This document shows, one piece after another, positions 22,916 to 64,000 of a stretch of 64,000 nt of DNA. The stretch spans positions 9,102,184 to 9,166,183 of the forward strand of contig OZ316895.1 of assembly GCA_973895155.1 (NCBI GenBank), read 5' to 3'. The position numbers were made by a program, and so were the translations under genes. Numbering within the stretch: position 1 is the first letter of the stretch; the number at the start of each line of letters is the position of its first letter. This stretch comes from Marsupella aquatica. Lineage: Eukaryota > Plantae > Marchantiophyta. The notes beneath the pieces were generated by a model that was not told the origin of the DNA, did no database searches, and saw only the letters and a program-made list of their open reading frames with translations.

Positions 22916-23250
22916 GTGTGCACTTAGAAAAATTAAGCCGTAGAGCAGTTATTTTGCTTTGAAGGGAGATCCGTTTTCAGAGAGTAAAATAATGTCCAAT
23001 GTGTACTGAGAGAATTAATTGTAGAGCCCATATTTTTCTTTGAACAGAGACCAGTTTCCAAATAGGAAAATAACGTCCGGTGTGCACTTAGAGAGAATCA
23101 ACTGTATAGCCACTATTTTGCTTTCAAGGGAGACCCGTTTTCAGAGAGAGAAGTAATGTCCGGTGTGCACTTAGAGAGAATTAACTGTAGAGCCGATAGG
23201 TTGCTTTGAAGAGAGACCCGTTTTCAAAGAGGGAACTCATGTCTGGTGGG
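22916..23250. repeat. Four tandem copies of an ~82 bp unit, probably a TE subterminal array
   Basis: Unit gtgtgcacttagagagaattaactgtagagcc...ttgctttgaagggagacccgttttcagagag...taatgtccg begins at ~22916, ~22999, ~23080 and ~23163. Confidence 0.85.
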
Positions 23251-24962
23251 CAGGCGGGCAGCGGGCAGCTCTCGGCTGGTTTGTGTGGAGGTATGGTCTG
23301 GCTGTTCAGAGGGGCGGTCCGACATTATGTTGCAGTCTCGTCGGGCACCCACCTCCTGCCCGCGGCCACCAAACATTGGCGGTGTGATGCAGCATGGCAT
23401 CGGAGCGGAGCGGGCTCTGTCCCACCGTCCGATCTCTAAGGCGCGGCATTGCATGTCAGACAGGATCCCTGCAACTGGGCCGTACGGTGCAGCCCGGGTC
23501 GCTGGCGAGGCGTCATTGGAGATCATGGAAGTTTCCGGATTGTGGATTCGAAATTCTCGTTTTTCTAGCCGACGGTCGTACGATGTGATGTTTTTGACGG
23601 TCAGGCGCTCTTCTCGTCAGACGAGGAGGGGTTTGGGCAGGCAGACGGGGCAGAAATCAGGGCAGACCAGTCCAGGGCAGGGCTGGGCAGGGCAGCGTGG
23701 GGCATGCGCGGAAAAAGATGCAAAGACAAGAGAGTGCGATTGATTTACGTCATGAGAGTGGAGACTCGAGCATGAACATGCGAAGTGAAAATGTGAACGA
23801 CGTTTCGACGATGAATGTGCACAATGCTGCGAGCTGTTTGCATAGATCGAGCTCTCTGAGTTGCGCGTTGCGGTACTGATGTCGTGAAGCGCATTTTCAG
23901 GTGCGGAACCGAGGTCGAAGAACGAGAATGGAGGTGGAAATCAGTTGACAGCTATCTGCATGAAACAGCTGACGGAGATTAAATGTTACACGGCGGGGCT
24001 CGTTCGACAACGATGGTGGTGATGGAGCTCTAGAGAAGTGGAGGCTTTCCGGGAGGTACGTTCTTCTGGTTTACGAACATGCATTGCGAAAGTTGATTGC
24101 GAAAGGAGGCACGAGACGAACTGCCAGACCTTAGAGGAGTGTAGCTGGCAGTGGTGGGAGCGGACGTAAAAGTCTGCGGCGGAAGCTGAACTCAACGAGG
24201 TCCGGAACGTGATCAGTGTACTGATTTTGCTTGCGATGGCATAGTCACAGCGACGGAAATCAAGAGTGCTCAGTGAGAAAGGGGCTTCGAAGACCGAGCT
24301 GGATAGAGTGTAGACGCAGTCGCAAGAGAAAGAAAGAGAACTTCGATGAAACTGAGCTCAATCCGCAGCGCAGCTCTATCGCAAGTGTCCCAGAAACGGA
24401 GGCGAGTAAACGTACCATCAGCTCTGGAAAAGTCCATATCATCGTGCAACTTTCTGCGTTGAACTGAACAAGAAATATCGGATAATCCTCGCGTTCATGG
24501 TTAGAGTGGTACTGTAGGAGGACATGTAATGTATGTTTCTGTAACGGAAGCTGAAACCATTTAGTAGTCGGGGCACCTGTACGGTGATCTTGTGTTCATT
24601 TCTGTGGACTGGGACTTCTGCACTAGAGACGGGAGGTCAATGGGATATGAACTCTCAGGAAAAAATTCAGAAGCTTGATCAGTTTCGAAGAAGATGGCGT
24701 TAGAGATGATGCAGATGCTCGAGCAAAGCATGACCAATGTGGGTATTGGTGAACACTCGTCCGTCTCCAAATTGAACCCAGACGTACACCTGGTTTGTTT
24801 CGTGGGATTATCTGATACCGAAAATTTTTCTGAGATGCTTCTTGAAAGCCAAGGTCGTAGCTGAATTGCAGGAAAAGGTAGAGCTCCAGAGATTACGGTT
24901 TTTTTTCAGAAAATGTGGTTCAATGTTCTTCAATGAGTTGAAGCATCATTACCCGATTCAAC

Positions 24963-30632: not shown

Positions 30633-33600
30633 ATGGCTCCCAACAAACGTAAGCGCACTGTGCAAACAGCAGGAGCCGCACCAGCGAACCCAATCCGCGT
30701 GAAATGTCCTGCCTGCGAGGTGCGTGTGCTGGACAACAATTGCCCTAATCCCCTTGAAACTGACGTGATTTGCATGTGAGTAGATGTCTTCATTCCTTTG
30801 CATCTTAGCAATTTTCCTAGAGTTAGCTTTCCACGTTTTCAGCTATCGAAGAAGAATTGAGCAACGGTCCTGGTTAGTTACAAATCATTGGTAGTAGTGA
30901 CTTCTCTGATTGTAGTTTGCACTGAGCGGTTGTTAGTCCTCAACTCTCACCTCGGTGAGTTCATTTCTTGAACAGAGCCATTTGGTCGTTCAATTGATTC
31001 CTTATGCGTGGTATTCTTTCTGCTTCAAGACAGAGTGAGAATGTGTGACATAGTTTCCCTTTCGACAAATCTGTTGCATTCCTTTTGAGAATGTCGAGAA
31101 GAGTTTGACAGTAACTGATGCTGTGCTCTACTGTGGAAGTGGAACGTTCACAGAAGGAGGTCCCATCTTTCTTTGTCAACTCGCACTTGGACTTGGAATG
31201 CCCGGTCCTGACAAAGGCCTCTGCACTCCCGGGACTACCAGCTCCTTCGCCCTCAGCTGGGAAAACTTTCGGCTGCTATTCTCCATCAAGAGGCCAACGC
31301 CAGGGGAGCTCTCTCCAAATTGTAAGTGGTAAAATGTAGGGTTTCTGGAACTCTCACGTTGAAGAATATGTATGTTTACAGCCATCAAAGATAAGACCAT
31401 TGTTGTCACCGAAGATTGCCCTGTCTCATCGACGTACTGTCCACGGATTCTACTGGGTGTGGGCCGTTTTGCCTTTGATTCTTTGCTTCGGGTTTGGGTT
31501 TTGGAATTGAATATTGATTTTGTGTTGTCTAGACTAAGAGCCATGTATATACTCTGGAAAATCTCAGTTGGGGAAAGCAAGTTTATCGTGTGGCCGAAGG
31601 CTGTTTTTTTCACAGCTGAGATTCCGTTTCCATTCTACCGGATTGTCTCGTAGTTTGTGAACAATCCTAGGCACAAAATAAGTCATTTTAAACTAAATGC
31701 ACCAGTTTTTTGTTTTCTCTTGCGCCCTTGCGGTACAAATCCAGAACACAAATTCATCATCCCTTGGTTCCCTGTTGGATTGTGACTACTGGCTTTTTGA
31801 GCATCTTCGGATTGGTTCAATTGTTGATTCATGCTCTGTTTTTGGGAACTAATATGAGACGCAGCACTGGATTGATGAGTGTGCTTCCTCTGAAATATCA
31901 TTTTCGTGGGAATCCGAACTAATCACAGAGACAGAGGCTTTTATTGTCAGAGATGAGGTTCCACTTCTATTGGAGAAGATTGTCGTAACCTTTGTTCACC
32001 GTCTGCCTTGTCGTTTTCTGTAGGATAGTGAGCAGCTCTTAACACAATAAGGATGTTATTTTATGAGCTTTTCTCTCAGTTATTGACATGCAAGTGCGTT
32101 GGCAAATTGTTAGGACGAGAGAATCATTCAGTCCTCCTTGAAAAATGACAGCTCTCTCGCGTCTTCGTTGTTGGAGTTTGATGAACCTAAATCCTGGGAG
32201 GATGAAAGAGGTGAGGTCACCACGGGTATTGCAGCTCACAAGGATCGTCCATCCTACGATAGGGACGTTGATAATTGTGTCAGGGATTGGGGTAGTGCCC
32301 GCGAAATCCAATTCGAAGTGTTTAGAAATCATTCAATGAGTCTCAAGGATGATGAACTGGAGAGAATTAGAAGAGAAGGAAGTGATTCTCGCAAGGAACA
32401 CTCTCAAAGTGCCGGGATTCAACTACCAAATTCAAGCTGCCAATCTGTTCACCCACGGGCAGATAGATGCTCAACTCAGTCAAGTAAGCCCGGGTACTTC
32501 GCTAGCATCTCGGGCTGTTTTCCATCTTTGCCGCCGCAGAAAATCATGGCTCCCAAAGGACTTCAAGTGGTAGAGGACTTCATTACACCTGAGGTATCCA
32601 AGCTGCCTTCCGTCCCCCGTATTGCAGTCAGAAGCAGGTGTAGGCGAAATGCATGAAGTCCTTCTCGATCTCCTTCTCGATGTTTTTGTTCACAGGTGAC
32701 TTCATTCTGCAGAGAGCGAAAAGCCATTTTCTCGTGTCTCTTTTGTCGAAGTGCCAGTGATGATGATGAGTGCTACTGTTGGACAAGATAGACAGGGAGG
32801 TCACATTCTCATTTTGGAGTTACAGATGCACAATACTAGTACTTTAGCAATGTAGGTATGAGACCCTGATGTAACGCGATAACTTGGGTTTTTTGAAGGA
32901 AGAGGAGTATCTATTGCATTGCCTTGACACAGACGTAAGTAATTCATGGAAGCCCAGCAAAACCAACGGCATACATCAAGGAAAAGCCTATGGAAATCAT
33001 ATCTATGGAGACTACAAAAGAAAGTAGGTTATATTTGTCCACTCTCGAACCATGTAAAACTCATTTGTTGTCATAGATTTATATCTTCGAGGATATGTTT
33101 TTAGCTGGGTCCCGTGTGTCCTGTTGACGTGGATAATTGTTACTCTGATCTGGCTGATTGGTAGGGTAGTTTCACAGGCGAACAGTCCAATGCCAGACTT
33201 TGTTCTCCCATATGTTAAGCGGATGAGAGACAAAGTGCCAGCGTTGAAGGAATTTTTCCCTAACGAAATGAACTCCATCGATTATCGGAAAGAGCACGGT
33301 CACTACTTAAAGGCACATATGGACGATCGACAGGTAGGGCAGTACACTAGCATTCAGTTTCCTCAACACAGAAGTAGAAAAGCTTCGTTTACGTATTTGA
33401 GGTCTCTTGCAGTGCCTCTGCTCGACCTCCGAGTTATCTTGTCTTAGGTTTAGTGCTCTCTGTCGTGCTTGCTGCTGTAGGAAAATCCGGGCTAATTCAC
33501 ATCAGTGGGACTTGATTCAATTATAGTGGAAAATATTGGTGAATTTGAGCTTGGCTGGCTGCTGTCGTGCTTGCTGCTGTAGGATAATCTGGGCTAATTC

Positions 33601-34045
33601 ACATCAGTGGGACTTGATTCAGTTATCGGGGAAAATATTGGTGAACTTGAGCTTGGCTGGCTGCTGCTTCATGACCTACACACGAGAACTTCGTGTAAAA
33701 GAGGCATATCAAGTAAAGCTAGCACCACGTTCTTTACAGGTAGCCTTTCTCTCTGATAGGAACGCATCATCATTTCATTCCTCGAATGGACGACTAAAGT
33801 AGGGACAGCAATACAATAAACTACAAAAGATGGATGTTGTGGAGATTCAGGATTATGTAGTACGACTGATCTCAGCTGTAAACTGGGCTTGTGTCTCTTA
33901 ACAGATTTTGACAGGGGAGAGTCGCTACAGTTACACTCATGGTATTCAAAGGGCTGACATTTTAGATCCTCGGAGAGTGAGCATGACTTTTAGACAATCA
34001 GTTCAAACTTCTCCAAACATTTGTTCAAGCAGGTTATATAATTGA
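30633..34045 (+). CDS. AlkB-family 2OG-Fe(II) dioxygenase (ALKBH4-like) with N-terminal NLS and Rad18-type UBZ4 zinc finger; 7 exons
   Basis: Exons ~30633-30719, 31154-31321, 32114-32593, 32899-33023, 33165-33333, 33623-33739 and 33905-34045 join in phase. The product reads MAPNKRKR..VKCPACE|KEVPSFFVNSHLDLEC (UBZ4), GLQVVEDFITPEEE, NSIDYRKEHGHYLKAHMDD (HxD), LAPRSLQILTGESRYSYTHGI (distal His), RRVSMTFR (2OG-binding Args). Confidence 0.88.
33461..33664 (+). repeat. 102 bp tandem duplication spanning the exon-6 splice acceptor of the AlkB gene
   Basis: Copies start at 33461 and 33563 (tgtcgtgcttgctgctgtagga...); copy 1 has gattcAAttatag where copy 2 has gattcAG|ttatcg. Confidence 0.9.
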
Positions 34046-34306
34046 ATCCTCTGTGTTATTGTCTTTAGAAGATGTATTATTCCCACACACACAGGTTTTT
34101 CCTTGTGACAGGAAATAGGAATTATCATAATAGCAAAAATAGTCAAAAATAGCAGGAGTTAAATAATTAAAGATAGCATGAGTTTTTGTACCCAATGCCA
34201 AAAGAAAATTCTCATTTTAGGTACCAAAAACTCCAGATATGTTTTACACATGAAGATATCATTTGATAATAGTTCAAGAATGCTTGCAACAAAAATCTTC
34301 ACAGAG

Positions 34307-34492
34307 CAACAAAAGAAACTTATAAATCCTAACCCAATAAGGATTGACAATTCTTGAATGTTTGGATCTGGAATGTTATGCTTACTCAAGCTGATCTCTC
34401 AACAAAAGAAACTTATAAATCCTAATCCAATAAGGATTGACAATTCTTGAGTGTTTGGATTTGGAATGTTATGCTTTTTCAAACTGATCTCT
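34307..34492. repeat. 93 bp tandem duplication
   Basis: caacaaaagaaacttataaatcctaa...ctgatctct at 34307 and 34400 with a few substitutions. Confidence 0.9.
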
Positions 34493-34689
34493 TATCTAGC
34501 ACAATCCATCTCTTGTGCATCTCCATTGACATCTAAGGAGAATCAATGAGCTTGCTCTTCCCCTATGGATGAGATTGTTTTGCTAATTGAGTTTTCATCC
34601 CTTGATAAGCACAGACACTCCCTATATAGTGGTCAGTCATGAGATAATTTATTGTTGTTTAGAATGTTATGACCAAAAAAACAGTTAGT

Positions 34690-35060
34690 TACTCTATTTA
34701 TATACCAATTTTCATGCTCAAAAATATTGTGCATGACGTCAAAATCATATAAATATTATGACATAAAAGTTTATTCCCCTTTAGACACCCCAATTGTCAT
34801 GCTCAAACTAACTTGAATGGTGTACTCCATTTATATACCAATGTTCATGCACAAAAGTTATTATGACATAAAAGTTTATTCCCCTTTAGACACCCCAATT
34901 GTCATGCTCAAACTAACTTGAATGGTGTACTCCATTTATATACCAATGTTCATGCACAAAAGTATCGCGCATGAGGTCAAATCATATAAATATTATAACA
35001 TAAAAGCTTATTCCCCTTTAGACACCCCAATTGTCATGCTTAAACTAACTTGAATGATAT
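34690..35060. repeat. Three near-identical ~105-130 bp tandem units in AT-rich TE-like DNA
   Basis: tattat(g/a)acataaaag(t/c)ttattcccc(t)ttagacacccc..aattgtcatgct(c/t)aaactaacttgaat at ~34753, ~34858 and ~34991. Confidence 0.9.
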
Positions 35061-35426
35061 TGCATCGTACTTTGATTTGACAAACTACTAATAAAACAAC
35101 ACATCATAGCAAAAGTTTCATGCATGTTCTAAAGTACTCCCTCAAAGATTGAATGTGGGGATTGACCAAAGGTTAACTTCCTCACATAAAGTGATGTGAG
35201 CGAAAATGTATACTCTTGCTATCAAATACAATACACTCTGGTCATTTGAATGCTTTAAACAATGATAAGAAGTTGGACAGAGTGTAAATTTTGATCCAAC
35301 CGCCTTAGATCATTAATGAATGCTGTGTTATTTTTGGTAGTAATAAGGTCAGCAACAATGACATTGAAAAATATTAATGATAAATATAAAAATTAAAAGA
35401 TAACAAATGATGATATAATATAATAA

Positions 35427-36720
35427 CACTACAAACTAATATAATAATATGATAATTAAAGCCATTGTTTTTGACCAAAATTTATAGCAGTTGACGCTAA
35501 TCAAAATATATCCTTTAGGCTATATTCATTTTTGTTCATATTCCCATAGTAGCATCTACCGCCAACAAAGAGTACTTTTTGGTGAGCTCTCATTTACATA
35601 GATATTTCTTTATTATATGCAAAATTGCATGACCTTCTAAAATATCCTTTAGTGTATTTATCAACGATAGCAAACATAAAAGATAAAAAAATGTTAATAC
35701 TATTAGTGAAATATGTGGTATAACAATAAACAAGTAAAGCTAACAGACTCAAAAAAAAGTTTCTCTAGAGGGTTTGGGCCAGAGTCACATTACTAGCTCC
35801 TAGTGTTAGTAATGTTCATTTGTTTTTCTATATTTTTTTGCATAAAATTTCTCTTATAAATTTCTCAAAATGGTGCTATTGTATTAATGTTAATTTACTT
35901 CTCCAATTGAATTTGCTAAATTTTTTATCATAAATACACTCAACATAATGTTATTGCAAAGAGTCTAAGCTCGAGTGTGATATTACTAGCTCTCGGAGCT
36001 AGTAATATTCTTTCATTTTTATAGTTTTTTTAGCTTAATTTTTTTCATAAAACACTCAAAATATTGTCATTTTGGAGGATCCAAATTGGTGTGATATTAC
36101 TAGCTTACAGCGTAATGTTCTTTTATTTTTATTATCTTTTTGCTTATTTTTTATGTAACATGCTCAAAATACTCTTATTCTGGAGGGTCCAGGTGGGTGT
36201 GACATGACTAGCTCTTGGCACTAGTAATATGTCATCATTTTTTTGAGTCTTTTCTTACTATTTTTTTTTGTAAACATGCACTCATATAATATAATTTTGG
36301 ACTGTTTTGATGACTTAAATATTATTAGTTCTTGGTCATAGTAATATTTTTTTATTTTTTATACTAATTTTAGCTCACTTTTTGTATAAGTTTTTAAAAA
36401 TATTATCATTCTTAGAGGGGATCAAGCCAAGTAGGATATTACTAGCGCGCAGTGCTAGTAGTCTTTTTATCTTTTTTATTTATTTTTTATAGGTTTATTT
36501 TTATTAGTTTTTGTAATTACCTTTTTTGCCAATTCTCTTTAAAAAATGATGGATGTTACTAGATATGAAAGTGTCATTTGATAATAGCACTTGCTGCTTT
36601 TATCAATCACTACATCAAAAAAAATTGATTTGTGATAGTGTCTGGCACTATCATATATTCTATACAAAATTTTAGGACTATTAAGATAGCATTTAGGTAC
36701 TAAATTAGGGATTATATCAT
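35427..36720. mobile_element. AT-rich CACTA-derived remnant with a spaced array of palindromes
   Basis: CACTACAAA at ~35427 and CACTACATCAAAA at ~36608; six palindromes of the form atattactagc-N8-9-(g/a)ctagtaatat at ~35786, 35979, 36093, 36201, 36319 and 36435. Confidence 0.45.
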
Positions 36721-39615: not shown

Positions 39616-40395
39616 AAGCTTTTTATTAACCTGTCCCCCAAAGTGAGCTAAATTACTAACCTACCCCCAAAATGATTTTAATTGCTAGGTTGCCCCCCCA
39701 TATTATATACATTAATTAATAGTTTTAGTTAACCCAGGATGATTTTTCATTGGTGGACTGACACATGGCAATGCACTATTGGCTCCGCCTTACCCTGGCC
39801 AAGTTTACCCTCACCGGGCTAGCTCTTTCCCATTTTTTGAATGAGCCCTGCACCAAACAGGGTTGGCCCATCCCCCTCTCGAGTTTTAAATCCCGATGAC
39901 CTAGCTTGAATCAGGCGATAGGCTCAAATGTGGGTTTGTTTACACATAGAAAACATGTATACTATCGGGGTCTCTTTCCTTCAGACAAGTGGGAGTAGGG
40001 TGGATCATCGGGACCCAAGGATCATCAGGCACCTATGGAGTGTGGGACCCCATTTTTGAAGGGAAATTGCAACACCCAGCCAGCAAGGTCATCAGGGTTG
40101 GGATCTCGGTTGGGATTGGAACTTGTGAGGGGGAGGGGCAGCCCTGGTTGGTGCAAGACTTGTTCAAAACATGGGAAAGTGCTAGCCGAGTGAGGGTAAG
40201 CTCGGCCAGGGTAAGGCAGAGCCAATTGCGCCTCGCCACGTGTTAGTCCACCAATGAGAAATCCCTCTGGGTTAACTAAATCAGCTACTTTAACCGATAT
40301 ATACAATATGGGGTGGGGCAACCTAGGAATTAAAATAATTTTGGGGGTAGGTTAGTAATTTAACTCACTTTGGGAGACATGATAATAAAAAGCTG
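39616..40395. mobile_element. Non-autonomous Mutator-like foldback element (~780 bp) with ~280 bp TIRs and a 10 bp TSD
   Basis: Left agctttttatta..cccccaaagtgagctaaattactaacctacccccaaaat..ccttaccctggcc.. is reverse-complemented at the right end (..ggccagggtaagg..attttgggggtaggttagtaatttaactcactttggg..taataaaaagct). Direct repeat AATAGGCATA at 39606-39615 and 40396-40405. Confidence 0.88.
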
Positions 40396-41196: not shown

Positions 41197-42616
41197 ATGG
41201 CGATGGTACCCGGTGGAAACGAGAAAATCGACTATGACGAGAGTTCGGGCCAGCGATCAGTGGGGGCTGCAAAGGATCCGAATCTCCCGCCAACGCTGAC
41301 ACTGAGGAGCAAAAGGATGGTGCTGAAGACGCCTACTCCAGAGGACGACGTTGCCATGTGCGAAATTGTCTCGGATCCCCTCACTGTGCAGTACCTGCCT
41401 CACTTTCATCGACCCGGAGGGTGGACACTGAGCGAGATGGCTCAGCGCAGAGAAAAGCTTTTGGCTGCCCAAGGAGAGGTTTCTCTCCTCTCCTCTCCTC
41501 TCCTCTCCTCTCCTCTAAGAAGTTTGCAAACTCTCGTAGGGTAGAAGTAAAGCCTGAATGGCCGGATCCAGCCCATCAAATCTATGTGGAGGTTCCTACC
41601 AAATTTTTTATCGAATTCCTGTCGTTACGAGCGAAAATTGTTATGCGTCACCCAAGCTGCGTTCTGATTCGTGCACGGCTCGTTGAGGACTCCTGTAGTT
41701 GTTGATTGATGGTGGCAAAGATTCCACTCTAGAAATGCGATAATCTTTGAACATTTACTTTTCCCCTGATACTTACATTTTTGTTGAGAGTATTCCAAAT
41801 CGATTGAAGTGTCTGGACAAGGCAGTAGGGATGACGGGACTTGGAATTGAATGAAACTTGCAAGACTAACAGTGCACTCCTACATTGCCGTCAATTCAGC
41901 TGACTTGTGGAGCTTGTTGATTTTCCATTTGTGGACTTCTCTTAGTCAGTAGAAAAGACGAAGTGAACTAGTAGAGGACTGAAGCCCTCAGCAATGTATC
42001 CCAATTTCCTATTGTGAGACTGTCCTCCCCGAATGTGAAGACTTGGAACGATTTGTGTACTTCTACTGGGATGCTCGGAGCACTTAGTCGATAAAGAGTA
42101 AGTATACATTACAGTATGTCCAATGAATACCTCAACAGCTAATAGACATGGGTGGATTTGCAGAATAAAGGTCTGACAGTCTTCATTCACATTTTGGGCA
42201 ACGAAGGGCAAAATGGCGGCACTGAAGAGTTCCTCACGCAGTCAAATGACAAAGTCGAAGATCTGACTCTTGCTGGAACCACTGGCTTCAGTGCCGTGAA
42301 ACTAACGGACAGGACATGCGAGATCGGCATCATACTTCACCATCCCTACTGGAGAAAGGGGATTTGCACTGAGGCTCTCTACCTGTGCCTGCGGTATGCG
42401 TTTGAAGAGCTCGGCCTTCACAGAGTGGATTGGGTCACTTCAGTGGGCAACAAGGAAATGCGAGGGTGGTGTGAGGATCTCCTGCAAATGAAGCCTGTCG
42501 ATGTCATGACTGAAAACCTTGGAGCTTCGGTGGGATATTCGTTATCAGTATCAGAGTGGCAGAGCCGTGTCAGCCATTTCCTTGAGCAGAAAGTGTCCTC
42601 GAGACGCAGCAGCTAA
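41197..42616 (+). CDS. GNAT N-acetyltransferase, RimJ/RimL (Acetyltransf_3) type; 2 exons
   Basis: Exon 1 (41197-~41478) TLRSKRMVLKTPTPEDDVAMCEIVSDPLTVQYL; exon 2 (~42164-42616) CEIGIILHHPYWRKGICTEALYLCLRYAFEELGLHRV..N, with the acetyl-CoA motif A variant WRKGI. Confidence 0.88.
41483..41515 (+). repeat. (CTCCT)n pyrimidine microsatellite at the 5' end of the GNAT intron
   Basis: ctctcctctcctctcctctcctctcctctcctct directly after the GT donor. Confidence 0.8.
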
Positions 42617-52899: not shown

Positions 52900-54990
52900 C
52901 TCTGGAATTGAGTGTTGGTTGTGCATGGAGCTCTGAATTGGGGAGAAACTATGAAGACAAATGTATTATAACGGACTTGTTGTGGGATTAAGTTGAAAAA
53001 GTGCGGTGAACAAAATCAATTTTGAAGTTTGTGACCATGGAAGCGAGGAGTAATGGAAAGTAAGTGATGGCTCTGGAGCCCAAGAATTTTTTGTGTTAGG
53101 TTACAGTGTGTAAGGACGATCGTGAGAGATCTGGTTTTCTATTTGATGGAATCGTTCGCATTTACTAGAGAGTCATAGTGAAATGCAAATGAGGTATGAG
53201 TATAACTCTTCAATGTCCCTTAATCTTTAAATTTGTTAAGGGCCATGGGAGTGCATTGGAACAAGAAGTAATGGGCTTGCTTGAACAGTTTTGCATAAAC
53301 AAAGTTGCTTTCATTAAGCTCATACTAACATTCAAGTCTCAATTTCTTCCCAGTTATGAAACATTTCTGGTGCTCTACTTGTCTTAAAATCAAGGGCAGC
53401 CTCTCAGGATTCCATGATGTCTTCATCTGTAGTAGTCATTTGGCCAAGGGATTTCCATGCCAATGCCAAGAATTTTCTGTCCCTAGAATAATTTTTGATT
53501 TCAACGTAACCCTAACCTTCTCATGAAAACATGATAGTATCCTGGGCTCATAGTATGAGGGTGGAGAAAAGACTTATTAATTATTACTTAACTATATAAA
53601 AAAATTACAAAACTTTCATGTGAAGTGATGGCTCGTCCATTTTGTATATTCATAAGATAAGCACTCTTTTGCCAACAGTTGAGTGTTGTCCCCAGTCCAT
53701 CTTGTGACCGTAATGTTCAACATAACTCACAAATGACCAATCAAGAATGATAGAAATTCACAATTTCTCCAATGTGTAAGCGAAAACGGTCATCAAAAAC
53801 TCAACTCCTCTACATTGAACTTTTGTTTGATAAAACAGAGAGATTATCTCAACCAGATCAATCTCCTCTATCTTTCGAGCATTCTCTTTTCTACGAGCAC
53901 ACACCAAGACCATCGGGAGACTCAAAACCATCGGTTATTGCCTTGCTGAAAATTGATTTCACTTCATCCCACACACATTCCTTGGATGAACATGGGGGTC
54001 CACGGGGGTATTTACAAACGACAAGAAACAGCAAACAGTAACAGGAAAATGAGTGGTAATTTTTTTTGAAATTTTTTTGAAATTTTTTTTGAAATTTTTT
54101 TTATGGAAAAAGTTTTTTATTTCGAATTTTATTTTTTTGCTAGTGCCCAAAGCTAGCCAAAAAATGTTGTAATTTAATTTTTTTTGGAAAATGTGACTTT
54201 TGAGAAAATATTTTGACATGGTTATTTTTCCTAGTAATAGTAACTTTTTGCTGGTACCTGTAAACCTGTTTCTTGTTTACTGTCACGCATGCCATACCCC
54301 ATCATCGGATGGGGTGTTTAAATCTTGCTATAGTTTGTTTTATGCAGTCAAAAGATATGGAAATTGTCCTTGATTCCAAGTTTTCCAAATTTCCTCTATG
54401 TGAGTGTTTTTGTCTGGTAAACAAGGCAAAATCTTTTTCCTGCACTGACTTCTATTAGAGCCATGCCTGTTTTAGGCTTGGTTCATTATGATCTTTGTGG
54501 CCAATGAACAACACCTCTTTGTTACACAAAAATAAAACCCAAGTTGGTTCTCACATCAAGTCTTTGAGAGGTGACAAGTATGTTTCTCAAAAGTTTTATC
54601 AATTCACGCACAACATGGTATTTCATGGAAAATTATCATACCCGTTACTCTTGAATAGAAATTTGGTATGGCCAAATGTAAAGACAACCTTGGTTAACTC
54701 TGCCCAAAGCATGATATTTGCTACACATCTCTCTTCACACTATTGGGTTGAAGCAATTCTAATTGCCTGCTACCTTCAAATATATTAACTTGGAGTTATT
54801 CTTCATCCTTGATGAAAGATCTTACTCCTTTGAAGTTTGGACAAGTCACAAACAATCAAGTTCTTACCCATGTCCAATGAACTAAAAATGCAAGAAGTTT
54901 TCTTGAAAAATTAAAACTATTTATTCATTGGGTATGATGAAGATTCGGTGTCAATGGTTATTGACCGTATAATGTGCAAACACTTTGTTT
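52900..54990 (+). mobile_element. Highly decayed Ty1/copia LTR retrotransposon internal region (gag, Zn knuckle, integrase)
   Basis: gag-like FLPSYETFL (~53345); knuckle relic FICSSHLAK (~53420); integrase relics CECFCLVNK, LVHYDLCG, IKSLRGD, TLVNSAQSM..LSSHYWVEAILIACYL, TPFEVWT and FIGYDE (54400-54945) with many stops and frameshifts. No LTRs identified. Confidence 0.7.
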
Positions 54991-55394: not shown

Positions 55395-55418
55395 CACTAG
55401 TACATTTTTGGCCCTTTT

Positions 55419-55835
55419 TCCGATCCTAACAACATCGGACCCCTTCAGAAATTTTGACGCAGAAAAATGACCCGTCCGATGTGATTTACTTCGCACTTTC
55501 CCATACTTCACCCATCGGATATCGACAATCGGACATCCATCGGAATTTCCATTTCTGATACAATTGGTACATCCGTTACTGAATGTTTCGGATAATTTGT
55601 GTCCGATTCTAATTTCATCGGATACTATAGGCCCACCAAAAGGTAATATCAAGGGTCCGATGTATTTTATATGGGATAGTCCGATGTAAAACATATCGGA
55701 GTTTGCGTAGCAATATGTATCGGGACATCCGTAGTGGTGTGTAACGCAAATTGCGATGCTGAAAATATCGGACATTTGGGAGGAGGGGTCCGAAATAGTT
55801 TACTTCGGAAGTTCCGTAGCGTATGGTATCGGATA
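55419..55835. repeat. CACTA subterminal array of TCCGA(T)/(A)TCGGA motifs
   Basis: More than 15 copies in both orientations, e.g. ttccgatcc, catcggacc, gtccgatgt, catcggata, gtccgatt. Confidence 0.88.
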
Positions 55836-56175
55836 TGAGTTGGGTCACCGGCTTGACTAATAATGGATATTTAGGGTTTGTGGGGGTTTAATATTGGATT
55901 CATGGGAATCATTTGGGGGTTTAGGTTTAGGGTTCAGGCTGAGATTGACAAAATAGGGTCCAAAGAGCATGCTCAAAGCAAGGTAGTGGTTGAATTAAAT
56001 ATCAGGTTTTCACAATGGGGAACACCCCAATATGTACAAAATGAAATGGGCCTAGGTAGGCAGTAGAGCCATATGGCCGGTGACGGCTACATGAAACACC
56101 AAAATGAGGCTCTAACTGGCCTACACTATGTGGTACCTCTAATCAAAGCTATCAGACACTATGTACCACAAACCT

Positions 56176-58703
56176 CTAAAAAGGTGTGTTGCGTCCCTTC
56201 TTCTTCTTTGGGCGAGAGCGTGGGCGGGGTACAGGTTCGGGAGCGCGAGACCCCTCATGTTGGTGGCTGCCCACAACCGTGGTAGCCACCTGCTCAGCGG
56301 ATGGCGTGGGTTGGCCTGATGCAGGTCTAGACCCTGAACCACTAGATGCACCACTACGGTGCTCAGGCAAGACAGATGTCCCACCACCCCCCGACACAGC
56401 AGAGTGGAAGGAGCCCTCTCCGGTAGACCTACGCGAGTGATGGGATGCTCCACCTGCATGTGTTGTCTCTGGCCCGTGCCGTGCTGTACTCCCACCAGAC
56501 TCACGAGATGGCGCTCGCCCCCTAGAACCACCATCCTGTATGTCACTAGTCCCTCGTCGTGGAGGGCCAGCTGGTGCACTATGTACCCCGGACCGATGGC
56601 CTGGTCCCACACGACCTCTACTACCCCCTGACGGCCCGGGCCTACCACCCCGTGATGCTGCTGAATGATGGGAGCCCACACCATCAGCATCATGTGAACC
56701 AGCACCCTCTGCTGATGTGGGGGCAACATGAGGGATAGGGGTAATCGTGGCCACTCTCGCCAACCCTGCCGCATCCTCTGCATCCTCATCACCTGCATTC
56801 TCATCACCAGCATCCTCATCGCCAGCATCCTCATCACCAGCATCCTCATCACCACCGTCCTCATCACCTGCATCCTCATCACCTGCCCCACCTGACTCCT
56901 CATCCGATCCCGACTCCTCCTCCTACGCAATACATAGCTAGGATTAAATTGTTGTTAAATTAGTTTATATAGGGCCTCCAAAACTCTAACAAATTCACCA
57001 TAACCAAAAACATTTTCATAACCTAGGGGGAACACAAACCTCTCCCAACTCATCCTCAAGGTGGCGCTTAAGAGCGCGGGGTCCATTCCTCTTTGCCAAA
57101 TCCCTCTCGGATGGCCCAATAGGTCTACCCCACTCCCTTTCCTGGCAGTTCACAGTCCCAAACAAAATATCCCATTAGCATGAAACCAAGCAATCTTGGA
57201 CCCCATAATGCACACCCTACATACCCCTCATTAAAACTGTTATCATAGTAAACCCTAATTTAAAATAGGACCCCTGCCACATACCCATACATATCCTATA
57301 CCCTATATATAAACCCCTAATCAAACTAGTTCTCAAATTTAACCCTAATTTAAAAAACTCCACAAAGTGCTACTCAATCATGAAACCCCTAAAACCTAAT
57401 ACCAAAGTTAAACAGTTATTGCTATAAGCCCCCTAAAAATGCCACAAAACCTGATAATTAAGCTTTCCACGAGGGGTCCGATTCTCCATCCGATTGTCTT
57501 AGCATCGGAACTGCCTCGGAACGTTAGTGCCAAAAAATGAATAACAAGAGGTCCGATGCCGGGTCCGATGCAGAAAGAATCGGACACCTATCGGAAAGCA
57601 CAGGGCCGAGAGCAAATTACACCATCGGGCTGCAAAGGGTTTAAAGCATTTGGAGGCTAAAAAATGGTCACTCTTCACAACAGAAGGTCAGGTGGTCGGG
57701 GGGAGGAGCTAGGGAGGAGGGAGAGGGGACTTACAAATTCGGCCTTCAGTCGATTGGAGCCGCCTTGCCCCATCCGGTGAGTGACCACAGGTCGACCTTG
57801 CACTCGCTGCAAAGCTGCTATGATGTCCTTTGGTGGCTTGGGGAGTCTTACCTCTTGTGCATGCCACTGTTGTAGCATCTGTTGGAGGGGGAGGATGTCA
57901 ATTTCCTCTCCAGCTTTCCTCTTCTCCTCTGCCAGGCTGATTTCGAGATTGTAGTGACGTTTTTGCAGCCAGGCTCGGACTGCTAGTTCCTCCTCAAGCC
58001 AAGCTGCCCACTCATCTGAGGAAAGCGCATCTGGACAGCCCTGCTCCCTGACCACCTCTGCATCCATCGGCATCTCAGCAAGGTAGTTCCTGAATTTCTC
58101 TCTTTGATGGTTTCGCATGTCTGAGAGTGAGGCGGATATCCTCTTGTTCAAGAACCTATCATCAATGTGTGCCCCGTTCTTGAATCGTTCTTTCACTTGC
58201 TCTCGAATTCTGGATTTCTCTTCCTCCTTCTTCTTGCCCCAGTAATCTAATGGCCCCAAATTGGCCTGCACCACTTGTTTGAATTGGCTGCGAAAGAGAT
58301 TGTAGCCCCTGGGTAATGGAGAGCCACCTGAGTTTAGGGGTAGCTCAGGCCTCAAAGCTCTCTCTGCTTCCTTTCGCTTGAGCTCCTCTACTCGCCCCTT
58401 CTCAGCTTCCCTAGCCTCCCTCCGAAGCTTCTTCTCTCGTTTTCGAGGAGAGAGAGACTCCTCTGCATCTGCCCTGCTTCTCTTTGCCTCCTTCTTCTTC
58501 TTCTTTGCAGCTGCAATGGCTGCTACAACAGCTTTCTCAGCCTCAATCTTTGAGGCATCAAACAAGGTCTGCAAAAGCGGGACTACTCTAGCTGCATCCT
58601 CCACACTCAACCCGGCCCTAGCAACAAAAATCTCCTTCATCACCTCATCGTATGCCCGAGAAGGTCCAGCCCCATCCCCACCACCAGATTCGCCTCCCAC
58701 CAT
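56176..58703 (-). pseudogene. TnpA-like (Ptta/En-Spm Transposase_24-like) accessory gene of the CACTA; 3 exons; one premature stop
   Basis: Exons 58703-57735, 57141-57040 and 56937-56176 join in phase 0 via GT-AG. CPDALSSDEWAAWLE and HRMGQGGSNRLKAEF|EREWGRPI resemble TnpA-family segments. Basic NLS-like runs KKKKKEAKR and KKKKGR; in-frame TAG at 56925-56923; acidic GDEDA repeats follow. Confidence 0.65.
56775..56905 (-). repeat. 15 bp coding minisatellite (GDEDA)n in TnpA-like exon 3
   Basis: Plus-strand unit catcctcatcacc(t/a)g repeated about 7-8 times. Confidence 0.9.
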
Positions 58704-59878
58704 CTCCCCTCCTCCTTTGAGCTCCCCTCCCAGCCTCGACAATAGCCTAAGTGTCAAGTGCGAAGCTTGTCCCGACTCGCGGGTCTTCGCACCAGCGTCG
58801 GGACTTCTTTTTTGAAATCTGGCCTGTTGCGTCCGATGCAAATTGCTTCGGACTTTCCGAAGCCGAGAACATCGGTATTGGTATCGGACCTTCCGATATG
58901 TTTGACATCGGACCCCTCGTTGTTAATGGGTTGCCTTTTGTTTGCCAAGGTTTGTTCGTTTCTTATAGTATCGGACCCCTCGTAGAATTCTTTCGGATGC
59001 ACCTTTTCTTTCCCAAATTAAGGGGGTGTGATGTGCTTAGTTAAATGGGTTGAATTGGGTATGGATTCTAGAGTTTTGGGGTTTTTTGAATTTGGGTTGG
59101 GTATGGTTGTGTTAACATTTTCTTTCCATTTGAATTGACAGGTTTTTTGATGTAGGGTGATACATACCTCACTGGGAGGGTGACCGTGACGTGCATGTGA
59201 CTCTTGTGCATACTAGTTCCTTCTTCAAGGATACAATTTTTGGGTTTGTTCTTGATTTTCATTTTTTGGGGGATAATTTTACTCTGGTTGTGCATACCTA
59301 ATATGTTAGGCTATAATGATGCAATTCTTATATAGTCTTGCTTGAGACATTGGTTTAGGGTTTTTATGAGGATAGTGTTGTACATTTTCTTATGATAACA
59401 TGAAGCCATTGTTAGGCTAATGTTTGTGTTTGGATATGATGTGCAGTACCTTGATTTTGGCATGGAGGGGTAGGTTAATTAGTTTTTTTGATGGGGGTTG
59501 GTAGTCTTTTTTGATAATGCACTATGCATAGCGTGAGACCGCGCATCCAAGAGGTATGATGTTTCTTGGCCCATCCATGTATTCTCCTCAGGTTGTAACA
59601 TAGAGGTTTACTTTGGCAAGTTTGACACATCGTTTGCCGAGGTGTGCATGTCGTGCACTTTTTTCACTTAGCTCACTATTGAAATGCCCACCTTGCAGAG
59701 ACTTTGGATATCCCACACTTTGTGTGTCGAGAATATAGCCCAATAGGCACAGCAAAGTGCGGATATCATTGAGGTACGTAGGGCAATGTCTCTCTATGTA
59801 AATCTCCTTAATTATGTTTGTATATACATCGACACAAGAAGTTGTTTAATCTAACTTACATGTTGGATATGTATGTAG

Positions 59879-61170
59879 ATGTCTACATCCGATAGTTCCA
59901 CATCGGATTCAGACTCTGACACGAGCTTGTCCGAGGGGGAGGTTCCTCCACCCCCTCCTCTTGACCGTCCTCGTGCTCCACTAGGGCCCATACCTTGCTG
60001 GTGTGTGAGATGCAAGGGACTTGTGGTTCGACATGCCTGGGAGACTTGTGAGCACATTGAGAACTATGGTCGCCATGAGGGTGATATGCCAGGTTATTTG
60101 CCTAGCCAGGTAAATAATTATACATACATCCCCCCTTTCATTTCATGAAACGGCAATTGGTGAAATATTGTATATAATTAGCTTGCATTCAAATAACACT
60201 ACTTAATTTATTGTGTGTTGAAATAGGTGCCTCGTAGACCCCCACCTCCTTTGGTTGATGATGTTGTGTGGCTAGAAGGGTTTCTAGCAAGGGCAAGGGA
60301 CTTGCTTGCATCCCCCCTTGCCCATCCACCTCTTAGCCCCCTGCTCCTATCCCCATAGTCGAGCATGTAGAGGGTGAACCGGTCTCTCGACCGGAGGTTG
60401 GGTGTACAAGAGTCCTACGTACACGACCACGGTCTCGCAGACGTAGATGGCAATATGAGCCACTGGAACAGGTAGACAACAGGGAGGAGGTGTTAGGCAG
60501 TGCCCGACCATCCAACAACGTAGATTATATTGGGGTTGATGGACGGTTTGGAGCATCTTATCTCACTGGTAGGGCAGCCGACATTTTGAAAGACTTTGAT
60601 CCTAGTCTCTTCAAATTTCCAGACTACATTCCTATTAATGAACCGATTGAGATATGGGGTCACTCTTGGATAGTGAAAGATTCCTCCATTGGTGCTGATA
60701 TAGGATATGGTCTATATGCTTTGGAGGACATTATTGTCCCTCCAAAGCCATGGAGACGTGGCTATGATGGAGAGCACCTTTTCCCTTACATTGGAGCTGT
60801 ATACAACGCTAAGAGTTGGAACATTTTGTTGCGTCAACACCCAAGTTGGGGGGTGTACGCATTAAGGATGGACTCAGACCCAGACGAGGTCTTCACTAGG
60901 CCGTGGCATTGTAGGATGATTGATGGTGACCCTGTTCGGAATTGTAATTTAGCAGGGTACATCAATAGTACCACGGGTAGAGGTAGAGATTTGGAGGCTA
61001 ATGTAGAGTGGATCCAGATGTTTGGTCCACCTAGAGCTCCATATTTTGTGAAACATATGGATGATCACATCATGACGGTCGCTGTTAGGACCATTAGAGC
61101 TGGTGAGGAGTTATTGTGTGATTATGAGTGGGATGCACCAAAATTGTCCCTACGTTCCCGTCCAAGATAG
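59879..61170 (+). pseudogene. CACTA-borne gene: transposase-associated Zn-like exon plus SET domain (one frameshift in the linker)
   Basis: Exon 1 (59879-60108) has IPCWCVRCKG..TCEHIENYG. Exon 2 starts at 60227, shifts frame near 60335-60345, then stays open 60337-61170 with SET motifs VKDSSI..IGYGLYALEDI, PYIGAVY, IDGDP..NLAGYINS, ANVEW and VAVRTIRAGEELLCDY. Confidence 0.8.
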
Positions 61171-61290: not shown

Positions 61291-64000
61291 AATCAATATG
61301 TGGTGCCTGATATTGGGGTAATATCACGAGCTATGCGGCAACACCTTGTTGAGGCCATGGTGGCGAATGATGGGGAGGAGAATGAGGTACAACATGAGGA
61401 TGATGACTCTACCCAAGATCGGCTTGAAGATGAGGAGGCCATGGATGAGCTCATGAACCAATTTTATGAAGATGATGCTGATATTGGTATGGAGGAGATG
61501 GGTTTCACCGATGACAACACCACTCATCCTTCTAGGGGGGGCCAGCAGAAGGAATGGGAAGAGGCTCAACGTCATGCTCGTACTCGCATATTTGAGGGGA
61601 GTAGGTTATCTCGGCTCTCAGCAATAATGTTATTGTTGAATCTGCAACAAAGACATGGGGCCAGCAACCTACTTTTGGATGATGTTTTTCGTACCCTACA
61701 TGATCGCATTTTACCACCAGGCAACAACATGCCAAGGTCTTGGAAGGAGGCTAAACAGGTGTTGAAGTCCATTGGTCTAAAGTATGAAGTGATACATGCA
61801 TGTGTAAATGACTGCATTCTTTTTAGGGGTGAGCATGAAAATGCAATCATATGTCCTGAGTGTGAGAAGCCGCGGTACCGTGATGACATGTTGACAGGGA
61901 AGGTGCCTCAAAAAGTTATGCGGTATTTTCCTCTCATCCCTCGATTGCGAAATCAATACCATTGTGCAGAGTTGGCTGAGTATATGGTATGACACTCACA
62001 ACATCGTTCTGATATGGGTACAGACTCCAGTGCCATGCGAATGATGGTTGACTCTCCTGCCAATCGATTTGTAGAGGATAGATGGGGTGAGTTCAAAACT
62101 GACCCACGACATGTGAGACTTGGATTGGCAACAGATGGTATTAGCCCTTTTGCATTGGCAGGTAAAGCAAAACCATATTCAGTATGGCCAGTAGTTCTAA
62201 CAAACTACAATATCCCTCCATGGATGGCCATGAAGAAAGGTCATCTACTACTCTCAATGATCATCCCGGGTCCTAAGCAAGTAAAAAAGATTGACATCTA
62301 CTTGCAACCTTTGATTGATGAGCTTTTGCAACTTTGGAGGGGAGTGGATTGTTATGACGGACGTCGCAACACTGGAGGTTTATCTCGCGCATTCACCCTC
62401 AAGGCCATTCTTATGTGGACCATGCATGATTTACCAGGTAATCACAGTAAACCTTGCAATTAATTTAACCCTATTTCATCAATCTTGCACTTAATTAAAA
62501 ATTGTATTCTTTTCTCTAACCTTCTTTCATTGGCTAGTTGTCCCTTGACCAATCATAGGGTTTGGATATATCTCTGGATTGCAAACATCAGGCTATCGAG
62601 CTTGCCCTTCATGTGGACCAGATTTGGAGGGAGTGGCAAGACGCAAGTCAATTACTTTGCGGAAGATAGTTTACATTGGTCATACTAAATATCTTCCAGC
62701 AGACCATCCTTGGAGGAGTGACCACTTCCTGTATGACACTGATGAGGGCCAACCTGATACCCGTCCTCAACCTCAGCGAAAGGATCCAGCATATATATTG
62801 GAGAGAGGTATGGCAAAGAGTTCAAGACCCAGATGATCCATTACAATTTCTCAGATGTGGGATGACCCGTTTGTCTGCATTATCACAGTTGCCATATTGG
62901 TCAGAGATGCCCATTAATCACTTGTTAGATCCGATGCACATTGAGGGGAATGTGGGGAGGTCATTGATTCGTCATCTATATGGGGAGAAGAACCACAATT
63001 GGAGAGAAAGTTGTGAGGAGATGGGGATGCATGGTCTTCTTGGTTTTTGGCCATCTTTGGACCCCCCTGGAGACCCCCCTAGCATCCATCCACCTTGGGT
63101 TTTGACTAGGGCAGAGCGCACTGAGTTTCGCAGACGTATTGGGTCAATGAGGTTTCCCACAGGTTATGGCGCAAATCTCCGAAAAGCATTTGGGGGGGAT
63201 GATTCTCCAAAATGGCCATCTTACTTGAAACACATGATTATCATCGGTTACTAGAACATGTCATTCCAGTTGCGATTATTGGATTGGGTAGTGAGGAACT
63301 TCGTGATGCCCTTTGGTCATTGGGAAAGCTTTTGAGATGGGTATGTCAGAAGGAGGTACAGGAGGATGAAACTGCTGCAATGGAGATATTTGGAGTAGAG
63401 GTTATTTGTAAGTTGGAGAAGGCACTCCCTCCCTCTTTCTTTGATGGCCAGGTTCATTTTCCCATACATTTAGTGCATGAGGTTGCAATTGCAGGCCCAG
63501 TGCATTGTCGATGGATGTATTGGGTTGAGCGTTATATGGGGGTGATGAAGTCGTACGTCTCTAATCGCGCTAGGGTGGAAGGTAGCATTGCAGAGCGTCA
63601 TCTTGGAGCAGAGAGTATGTTTTATTGTACAAACATAGTTGCCACACTAGATCCTAACGCTCCTAGGGGATGGATACATGAGGCAGCGCGAGAGGCGGAC
63701 TATGAGGATGATAGACTCACTGGGGCATCAGGAGAGCGTCTCTTGAGCTCAGCGGAGCGTTTGCAGCTCACAACATTTATGTTGTATAATTCACCAGAGG
63801 TTGTAGGGGAGTGGACAACATTTTATGAGGAGGAGAAGAAAAATAGTCGGCGACCACGATTATTTCCCAAGTTTCACCCATACATGAAGTCAAAGATGCT
63901 AGAAGTGGATGCCTTGGTGGGTATTGGGGAGAGCATATCACACTTCCCAAAGGTGATTGATAAGCTTCATACCTTGATTCATGGTCCACTACTTATAGTC
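61291..64000 (+). pseudogene. CACTA TnpD transposase (Transposase_21/Tnp2 plus DUF4218), disrupted, truncated by the window end
   Basis: IHACVNDCILFRGE..CPECEKPRY, VMRYFPLIPRL, VRLGLATDGISPF, YSVWPVVLTNYNIPPW, IDIYLQPLIDELLQLW, WTMHDLPG|FGY..GYRACPSC (intron ~62438-62558), LDPMHIEGNV, KLEKALPPSFFD..GPVHCRWMYWVERYM..EGSIAE. Lesions: TGA at 61990-61992 (conserved W of WH) and frameshifts at ~62808 and ~63229. Confidence 0.93.

Follow-up and report, generated by a model that had tools for sequence, protein, structure and literature searches.

Several DNA transposons are known to encode SET-type lysine methyltransferases. SET genes have been described in HarbingerS elements and in MuDR transposons of Phytophthora (PMC12730594), and SET-carrying Helitrons are cited both in that work and in the Bostrychia preprint. 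A SET accessory cargo within the EnSpm/CACTA superfamily itself is PAG2 of the red-algal Plavaka elements, which has long been kept and for which a role in chromatin is proposed (10.1101/2025.02.11.637652). For the transposon-borne SETs of oomycetes and red algae, the available passages of these works report no test. A second group of related systems comprises the anti-silencing factors of plant transposons. Those studied, VANC and TnpA, have no enzymatic activity themselves and make use of DNA demethylases of the host (10.64898/2026.08.24.746577). In Arabidopsis, TnpA binds clusters of family-specific motifs and recruits these demethylases, and H3K9 methylation stays. According to the accessible main text of the same study, which is without mention of SET, Spm elements make their products via alternative splicing or from separate genes, and TnpA-like proteins occur only in flowering plants.

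Here, we describe a CACTA element with a SET domain inside its transposase locus, located in a 64,000-nt stretch of the liverwort Marsupella aquatica (contig OZ316895.1), which is referred to below as the window and to which all positions without a locus name apply. An earlier sequence-only reading of this DNA had presented SET cargo as implicitly new, which is overstated, as HarbingerS, Phytophthora MuDR, Helitrons and red-algal Plavaka precede it. Nonetheless, a literature search, with Repbase and subscription journals outside its scope, found no published case of a SET domain in a land-plant CACTA element. Like PAG2, the window SET is cargo of an EnSpm/CACTA-superfamily transposon. PAG2, which is compared here by its description, is however a gene in its own right within a three-gene Plavaka cassette, and its product combines SET with an N6-adenine DNA methylase. 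The window SET lacks a methylase partner; it is embedded in a TnpD locus of the plant type (PF02992, PF13960) and likely has exon 1 in common with the transposase. The N6-adenine methylase profile (PF01555) matched neither the window frames nor any of 55 aligned family members. HarbingerS, Phytophthora MuDR and the Helitrons likewise are DNA transposons encoding a SET lysine methyltransferase, but they belong to other superfamilies and other hosts, and the passages describing them mention no exon shared with the transposase. The window transposase is a CACTA TnpD and not of the Harbinger or MuDR type. With En/Spm of maize and Arabidopsis, as far as described in the passages available, the window element shares a likely CACTA terminus, TnpD, family-specific motif clusters and, probably, alternative splicing as a source of separate products. 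Yet TnpA is non-enzymatic, while the alternative exon of the window element has an enzyme fold.

The TnpD domains place the element in CACTA/EnSpm (PF02992, E = 1e-41; PF13960, E = 3e-30); L002, a metagenomic relative, additionally matches PF13952. The likely left terminus is the CACTA at 55395–55399 (+ strand), inferred from the metagenomic loci L006 and L008, in which homology begins exactly at CACTA while the flanks differ. From this terminus it is 24 nt to the first subterminal palindrome, the same offset as in L006 (CACTA at 6289, first palindrome at 6313). The right end, with its expected inverted repeat and 3-bp target duplication, lies outside the window, and none of the metagenomic loci covers both ends. 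When up to one mismatch is allowed, palindromes of the form TCCGA-N11-TCGGA occur 15 times in the 64 kb, compared to 1.04 expected, and all of them fall within 55419–58912. Ten sites form a subterminal cluster (55419–55833) and are predicted as likely TnpA-type binding sites. Two more (57489–57584; L006 counterpart 7602–7731) fall within intron 1 of an accessory gene, and three (58832–58912; L006 counterpart 8996–9101) in what is likely a divergent promoter serving this gene and the first exon of the transposase locus. A second family, represented by metagenome contigs, carries TGCGA-N11-TCGCA at three matching places and with the same 24-nt offset (13 sites compared to 0.11 expected). Each family has its own palindrome, both with an 11-nt spacer (window 55419–58912; L006 6313–9101). 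Clusters of CG-containing, family-specific motifs in non-coding parts are also typical of VANC/TnpA-type systems. The core of the TnpA-Spm1 motif of En/Spm, given as CCVTCGCAAA in the available description, is matched by the second-family half-site TCGCAA, a likeness that may point to a recognition code of great age.

The accessory gene (56075–58703, − strand) likely comprises three exons, at 58703–57735, ~57141–57040 (placed by eye) and 56922 to ~56177, with an approximate low end. It and the transposase locus are arranged head to head, unlike the genes of maize Spm, which lie on the same strand. Its product is about 30% identical to that of the gene in the same position in the second family, and its predicted model is helical, with low confidence. 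No family or fold match was obtained against Pfam, the atlas or Foldseek. The position of the gene, together with an HxxGxGG motif that we take to be of the TnpA type, suggests that it likely encodes a TnpA-like DNA-binding protein. The last exon contains seven 15-nt repeats that encode an acidic GDEDA run and closes with a basic, NLS-like end.

The transposase locus is encoded on the + strand. Its first exon (59879–60109; 77 codons), hereafter the zinc exon, starts with an ATG, continues with a Ser/Asp- and Pro-rich stretch and a CxCxxC-x13-H motif from 59996, and ends at the phase-0 donor CAG/GTAAAT. The SET exon (60227–61170) follows, with a phase-0 acceptor, a Pro/Arg-rich linker, an N-terminal extension of about 50 residues, the SET core (60655–61125) and a stop. 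TnpD is encoded from the phase-0 acceptor TAG/AAT onwards by an exon at 61291–62437, which covers the N-terminal part of Transposase_21 (PF02992) and carries a premature TGA at 61990–61992, and by further coding sequence at 62558–64000, which covers the C-terminal part of Transposase_21 and DUF4218 (PF13960) and continues past the window end. The SET domain thus lies between the CxCxxC..H exon and TnpD on the transposase strand, as the sequence-only reading had it. TnpD usually starts with the transposase-associated domain PF13963. This profile does not match the window zinc exon itself, and it reaches the homologous zinc motifs of two relatives (P0061 and P0185) below the cut-off only (E = 0.031 and 0.16). 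The zinc exon is likely a diverged version of this transposase-associated zinc domain.

Phase 0 is found at the donor and at both acceptors in three families, namely those of the window, L001 and L002, and the TnpD acceptor reads TAG/AAT in all three. The distances are 111–118 nt from the zinc donor to the SET acceptor and 120–219 nt from the SET stop to the TnpD acceptor. A splice-site survey of 25 records allowed the donor to be read in 9 and the acceptor in 12; the others were fragmentary or mutated. A Calypogeia gene model (P0001) joins the zinc exon to the SET exon. It is highly probable, judging from these predicted sites, that the zinc exon has two in-frame splice partners, the SET exon and, when this is skipped, TnpD, the skip of the SET exon, a terminal exon, being deduced from splice phase alone. 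The simplest reading would be a single transcription unit with two predicted products, a zinc-SET protein, 391 residues long if the copy is intact, and a zinc-TnpD protein. Fusions of 882–2515 residues did not occur in the search, which is weak evidence.

The SET motifs recognized earlier all proved to be in place on the + strand and in a single stop-free frame (60337–61167; 277 codons; stop TAG at 61168–61170): IGYGLYA (60700–60720), FPYIG (60781–60795), NLAGYINST (60946–60972) and IRAGEELLCDY (61093–61125). On this frame, within the CACTA element, the Pfam SET profile (PF00856) scores 25.1 bits (E = 2.4e-5), which is above its gathering cut-off of 22.4 bits, and 46 out of 55 aligned family members match the same profile at E ≤ 0.01. 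An AlphaFold2 model built from 12 sequences reached a pLDDT of 76. Foldseek with this model returned only SET proteins among the matches listed (best E = 1.5e-6), and an independent structure aligner matched it to SETD8 with a Z score of 11.5. The profile and structure checks proposed earlier thus both recovered a SET fold. A phmmer search with the single window sequence against the PDB gave no match below E = 0.49. The domain has no intron in the window and is not accompanied by pre- or post-SET Cys clusters, which agrees with what had been noticed before.

Residues were counted over 55 aligned family members with 24–73% identity. The two glycines of GxG are kept in 52 and 55 members, the YxG glycine in 54, the motif Asn in 50 and the terminal catalytic Tyr in 49, and the GxE motif is also kept (49–55 rows for all of these). 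Where the canonical SET motif RFINH (PMC3980110) is expected, the window copy reads LAGYINS, with both His and Arg replaced, and the same holds for the family, as His is replaced by Ser in 53 and Arg by Gly in 52 of the 55 members. The sequence-only reading had correctly listed the GxG and YxG motifs and the catalytic Tyr, but had not noticed that the His of the NHS motif is gone. Because both residues are replaced family-wide, catalysis may be weak or absent. The SET domain may then have been kept as a binder of lysine or of histone tails, or as a transpososome scaffold involved in, for instance, target-site choice, a role with which the extra family-specific conserved residues (LFPY, W and DGDP) are also consistent. 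This possibility is improbable given that the SAM-binding GxG, the Asn and the catalytic Tyr have been kept at 24–73% identity, the Tyr being present in 102 out of 108 proteins that fit a GxEL pattern.

Among solved proteins, LegAS4/RomA of Legionella (PDB 5czy, 8swi) is the best match both by sequence profile (E = 6e-6) and by Foldseek. Both are minimal SETs without the NHS His, which LegAS4 lacks in the profile alignment as well. LegAS4/RomA is described, in the passages available, as an H3K14 methyltransferase. It is secreted by the bacterium, contains ankyrin repeats and shares 22–26% identity with the window SET, a match too weak to indicate origin or substrate. EZH2 was matched by the same profile with E = 1e-3; both matches are weak. 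Overall, the conserved residues make it probable that the SET domain of this family is catalytically active. Two positions before the terminal Tyr stands a small residue, and 106 of the 108 pattern-fitting proteins (redundant members counted) have a non-aromatic one there. According to the Phe/Tyr-switch rule, a small residue at this position allows di- or trimethylation, and by this rule the predicted enzyme would permit either.

A profile search of 1.84 billion proteins yielded 132 related clusters at E ≤ 0.001. Organism names were looked up for 30 of them and include Calypogeia, Riccia sorocarpa (several loci), Adiantum and Ceratopteris; the closest named relative of the window SET is from Calypogeia fissa (71% identity). 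The gene models of this family inflate the counts of ‘SET domain-containing protein’ in genomes such as that of Riccia. A divergent member from Calypogeia fissa (proteins P0081 and P0186) has a different, Cys/His-rich N-terminus with a weak DUF5763 match and could stem from another transposon or have been domesticated.

A metagenomic family with about 42% identity shows the same order of opposite-strand accessory gene, zinc exon, SET and TnpD. Linkage was determined in 24 metagenomic loci, of which 22 belong to a single family and count once. TnpD is found downstream in 16 out of 18 loci with at least 280 nt of downstream sequence, the zinc exon upstream in all ten loci with at least 600 nt upstream, and the accessory gene in six out of seven with at least 2.4 kb upstream. 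With regard to the suggested check of whether SET always lies between the zinc exon and TnpD, two loci had room for TnpD but lack it, L016 (a truncated SET) and L022 (a distant subfamily). These figures apply to the 24 loci; genomic context was available for a minority of the 132 clusters, the distant clades of the tree not among them. In gene models from Riccia (P0064, P0086, P0090) and Adiantum (P0184), sequence of the SET family is combined with that of TnpD. They were rejected as true fusions, since they resemble predictions on decayed copies, and are used as evidence of adjacency only. A shared repeat, likely the LTR of an inserted retrotransposon, interrupts some element copies (L004 12–127 and 5317–5432; L016 2583–2696).

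CACTA elements are known to capture fragments of host genes. The SET domain might accordingly be a functionless captured fragment of the Pack-CACTA type, particularly as the window copy and many others are broken. Selection argues against it. Between L001 and 13 second-family copies, dN/dS is 0.27–0.38 at a dS of 0.42–0.55, and between the window and the same copies it is 0.27–0.40, with dS near saturation. In the SET core, 33 synonymous and 30 replacement changes separate the families, whereas the singletons of decaying copies comprise 14 and 58 (Fisher p = 7e-5). With 11 synonymous and 31 replacement changes, the N-terminal part looks neutral. The SET core is thus under purifying selection between families, and the dN/dS check suggested earlier speaks against a neutral one-off capture. 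So does the identical layout in three families, and the SET is not single-copy but is multicopy, present in sibling copies as well as in distant families.

Furthermore, none of the 132 profile relatives carries an NHS-type motif, so no host donor shows up. PF00856 is also the sole Pfam match in the SET frame, which lacks the class-specific partner domains of SUVH, ATX, CLF and ASHH; the earlier view that the domain is not a fragment of such a plant gene is borne out on both counts. Capture of a functionless fragment is thereby largely refuted and has become very improbable. Among viral contigs, none of 33 pattern matches is a relative. Among prokaryote genomes, one of 80 is an ordinary NHS-type bacterial SET with 29% identity, the position of which in the family tree was disregarded as a long-branch artefact.

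The window copy itself reads as broken and probably inactive. Within exon 2, which starts at 60227, a run of C at ~60337, upstream of the SET core, carries a 1-nt frameshift that puts the zinc exon and SET out of frame. In TnpD, the TGA at 61990–61992 is joined by frameshifts near 62791 and 63227. The domain frame was thus rightly read as stop-free, but the frameshift and the three TnpD lesions had been missed. Three of the four lesions are located in simple runs, where errors of assembly might have produced them. Contigs of sibling copies in public runs have the open form at all four sites, with one extra C at the ~60337 site, and position 61992 is a G in every covering contig of runs X1, X2, X3 and X6. 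The depth in run X1 is 112–118 for element contigs compared to 12–13 for flank contigs, and one X1 contig of 1555 nt differs from the window in 7 letters. Together, these observations suggest roughly ten young copies of the window element; contig depth is a rough measure of copy number, and X1 is possibly the source sample rather than independent support. CpG is depleted over the window element (observed/expected 0.44–0.53 in coding parts), which, together with the stops in 7 out of the 13 second-family copies, indicates that copies do get methylated and decay.

What could an active SET domain do for its transposon? In the reading that we prefer, joining the zinc exon to the SET exon would give a zinc-SET lysine methyltransferase, a splice twin of the transposase, that would likely act on the histone tails of the element's copies and, by methylating them, keep these copies open for expression and transposition. 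Its delivery would likely depend on the shared zinc exon or on the TnpA-like protein when this occupies the family-specific palindromes, and it would complement a TnpA-type factor. In liverworts and hornworts, H3K27me3 is found on many transposons, according to the available part of a study on these plants (10.1101/2022.10.24.513474), which makes a counter-measure at the histone level plausible. With regard to its parts, we lean slightly towards a histone as the substrate of the SET domain, while an anti-silencing effect on copies of the element itself is possible but not something that we would call probable. The whole chain, in which an active splice-twin methyltransferase marks histones on cognate copies to favour their activity, comes close to being evenly balanced without quite reaching it. 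It is doubtful whether it can be extended to an ancient CACTA lineage of seed-free plants with a splice-twin histone writer that is targeted via its zinc finger or the TnpA-like protein and possibly modifies a lysine that is not a usual target of plant SET enzymes.

The structural neighbours bear on the substrate. Set1, EZH2, NSD2 and SET7/9 all lie within about one Z unit of SETD8 in the same aligner, and enzymes acting on H3K4, H3K27, H4K20, H3K36 and H3K14 are matched within ~2 Z units of one another, so the substrate cannot be read off the fold. An enzyme that writes a repressive, H3K27- or H3K9-like mark, either for reversible self-silencing or to switch off host defence genes, would agree with Z scores of 10–11 for EZH2-type chains, with the H3K27me3 on liverwort and hornwort transposons and with the giant-virus SETs among the structural neighbours. 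Chlorovirus vSET, for instance, switches off host defence genes. Such a role is nonetheless rather improbable, as activating-mark enzymes tie with these chains in Z score and the plant transposon accessory factors studied, VANC and TnpA, activate their copies in the accounts available. Many SET enzymes act on non-histone proteins. The active methyltransferase might similarly modify its own TnpD or TnpA-like protein and influence transposase stability, or modify a host silencing factor and disable the defence in trans. The minimal SET without pre-SET, post-SET or reader domains is in line with such a target, as is exon 1, which SET and TnpD likely have in common and which would lead to their co-expression. 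We regard a non-histone substrate as unlikely, since the closest solved profile relatives, LegAS4 and EZH2, are histone enzymes, albeit weakly matched.

If the extended reading of a targeted, splice-twin histone writer were true, this would be the first case of a transposon demonstrated to alter the histone marks of copies of itself. The family occurs in liverworts and in ferns, including Ceratopteris, and offers young near-identical copies, a compact domain of 210 residues and defined target motifs, such that the idea of a transposon writing its own histone mark becomes directly testable.

Elsewhere in the window, an intron-split host gene for an ARF-GEF of the Sec7/BIG type (3700–16400, with Sec7 at ~11–12.5 kb) marks the window as plant nuclear DNA, and a GNAT acetyltransferase host gene is located at 42146–42613. 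Short tandem arrays (83–105 nt), together with a dispersed 58-nt repeat with ACTAG cores in an AT-rich stretch, are found at 22916–23260, 33460–35095 and 35781–36487. A long inverted repeat with arms of 152 and 96 nt that are 83–86% complementary (39617–40394) is likely a foldback element or a MITE. Finally, the segment at 53600–54400, just outside the CACTA element, is a repeat of very high depth in the public runs and likely a MITE or another small repeat.
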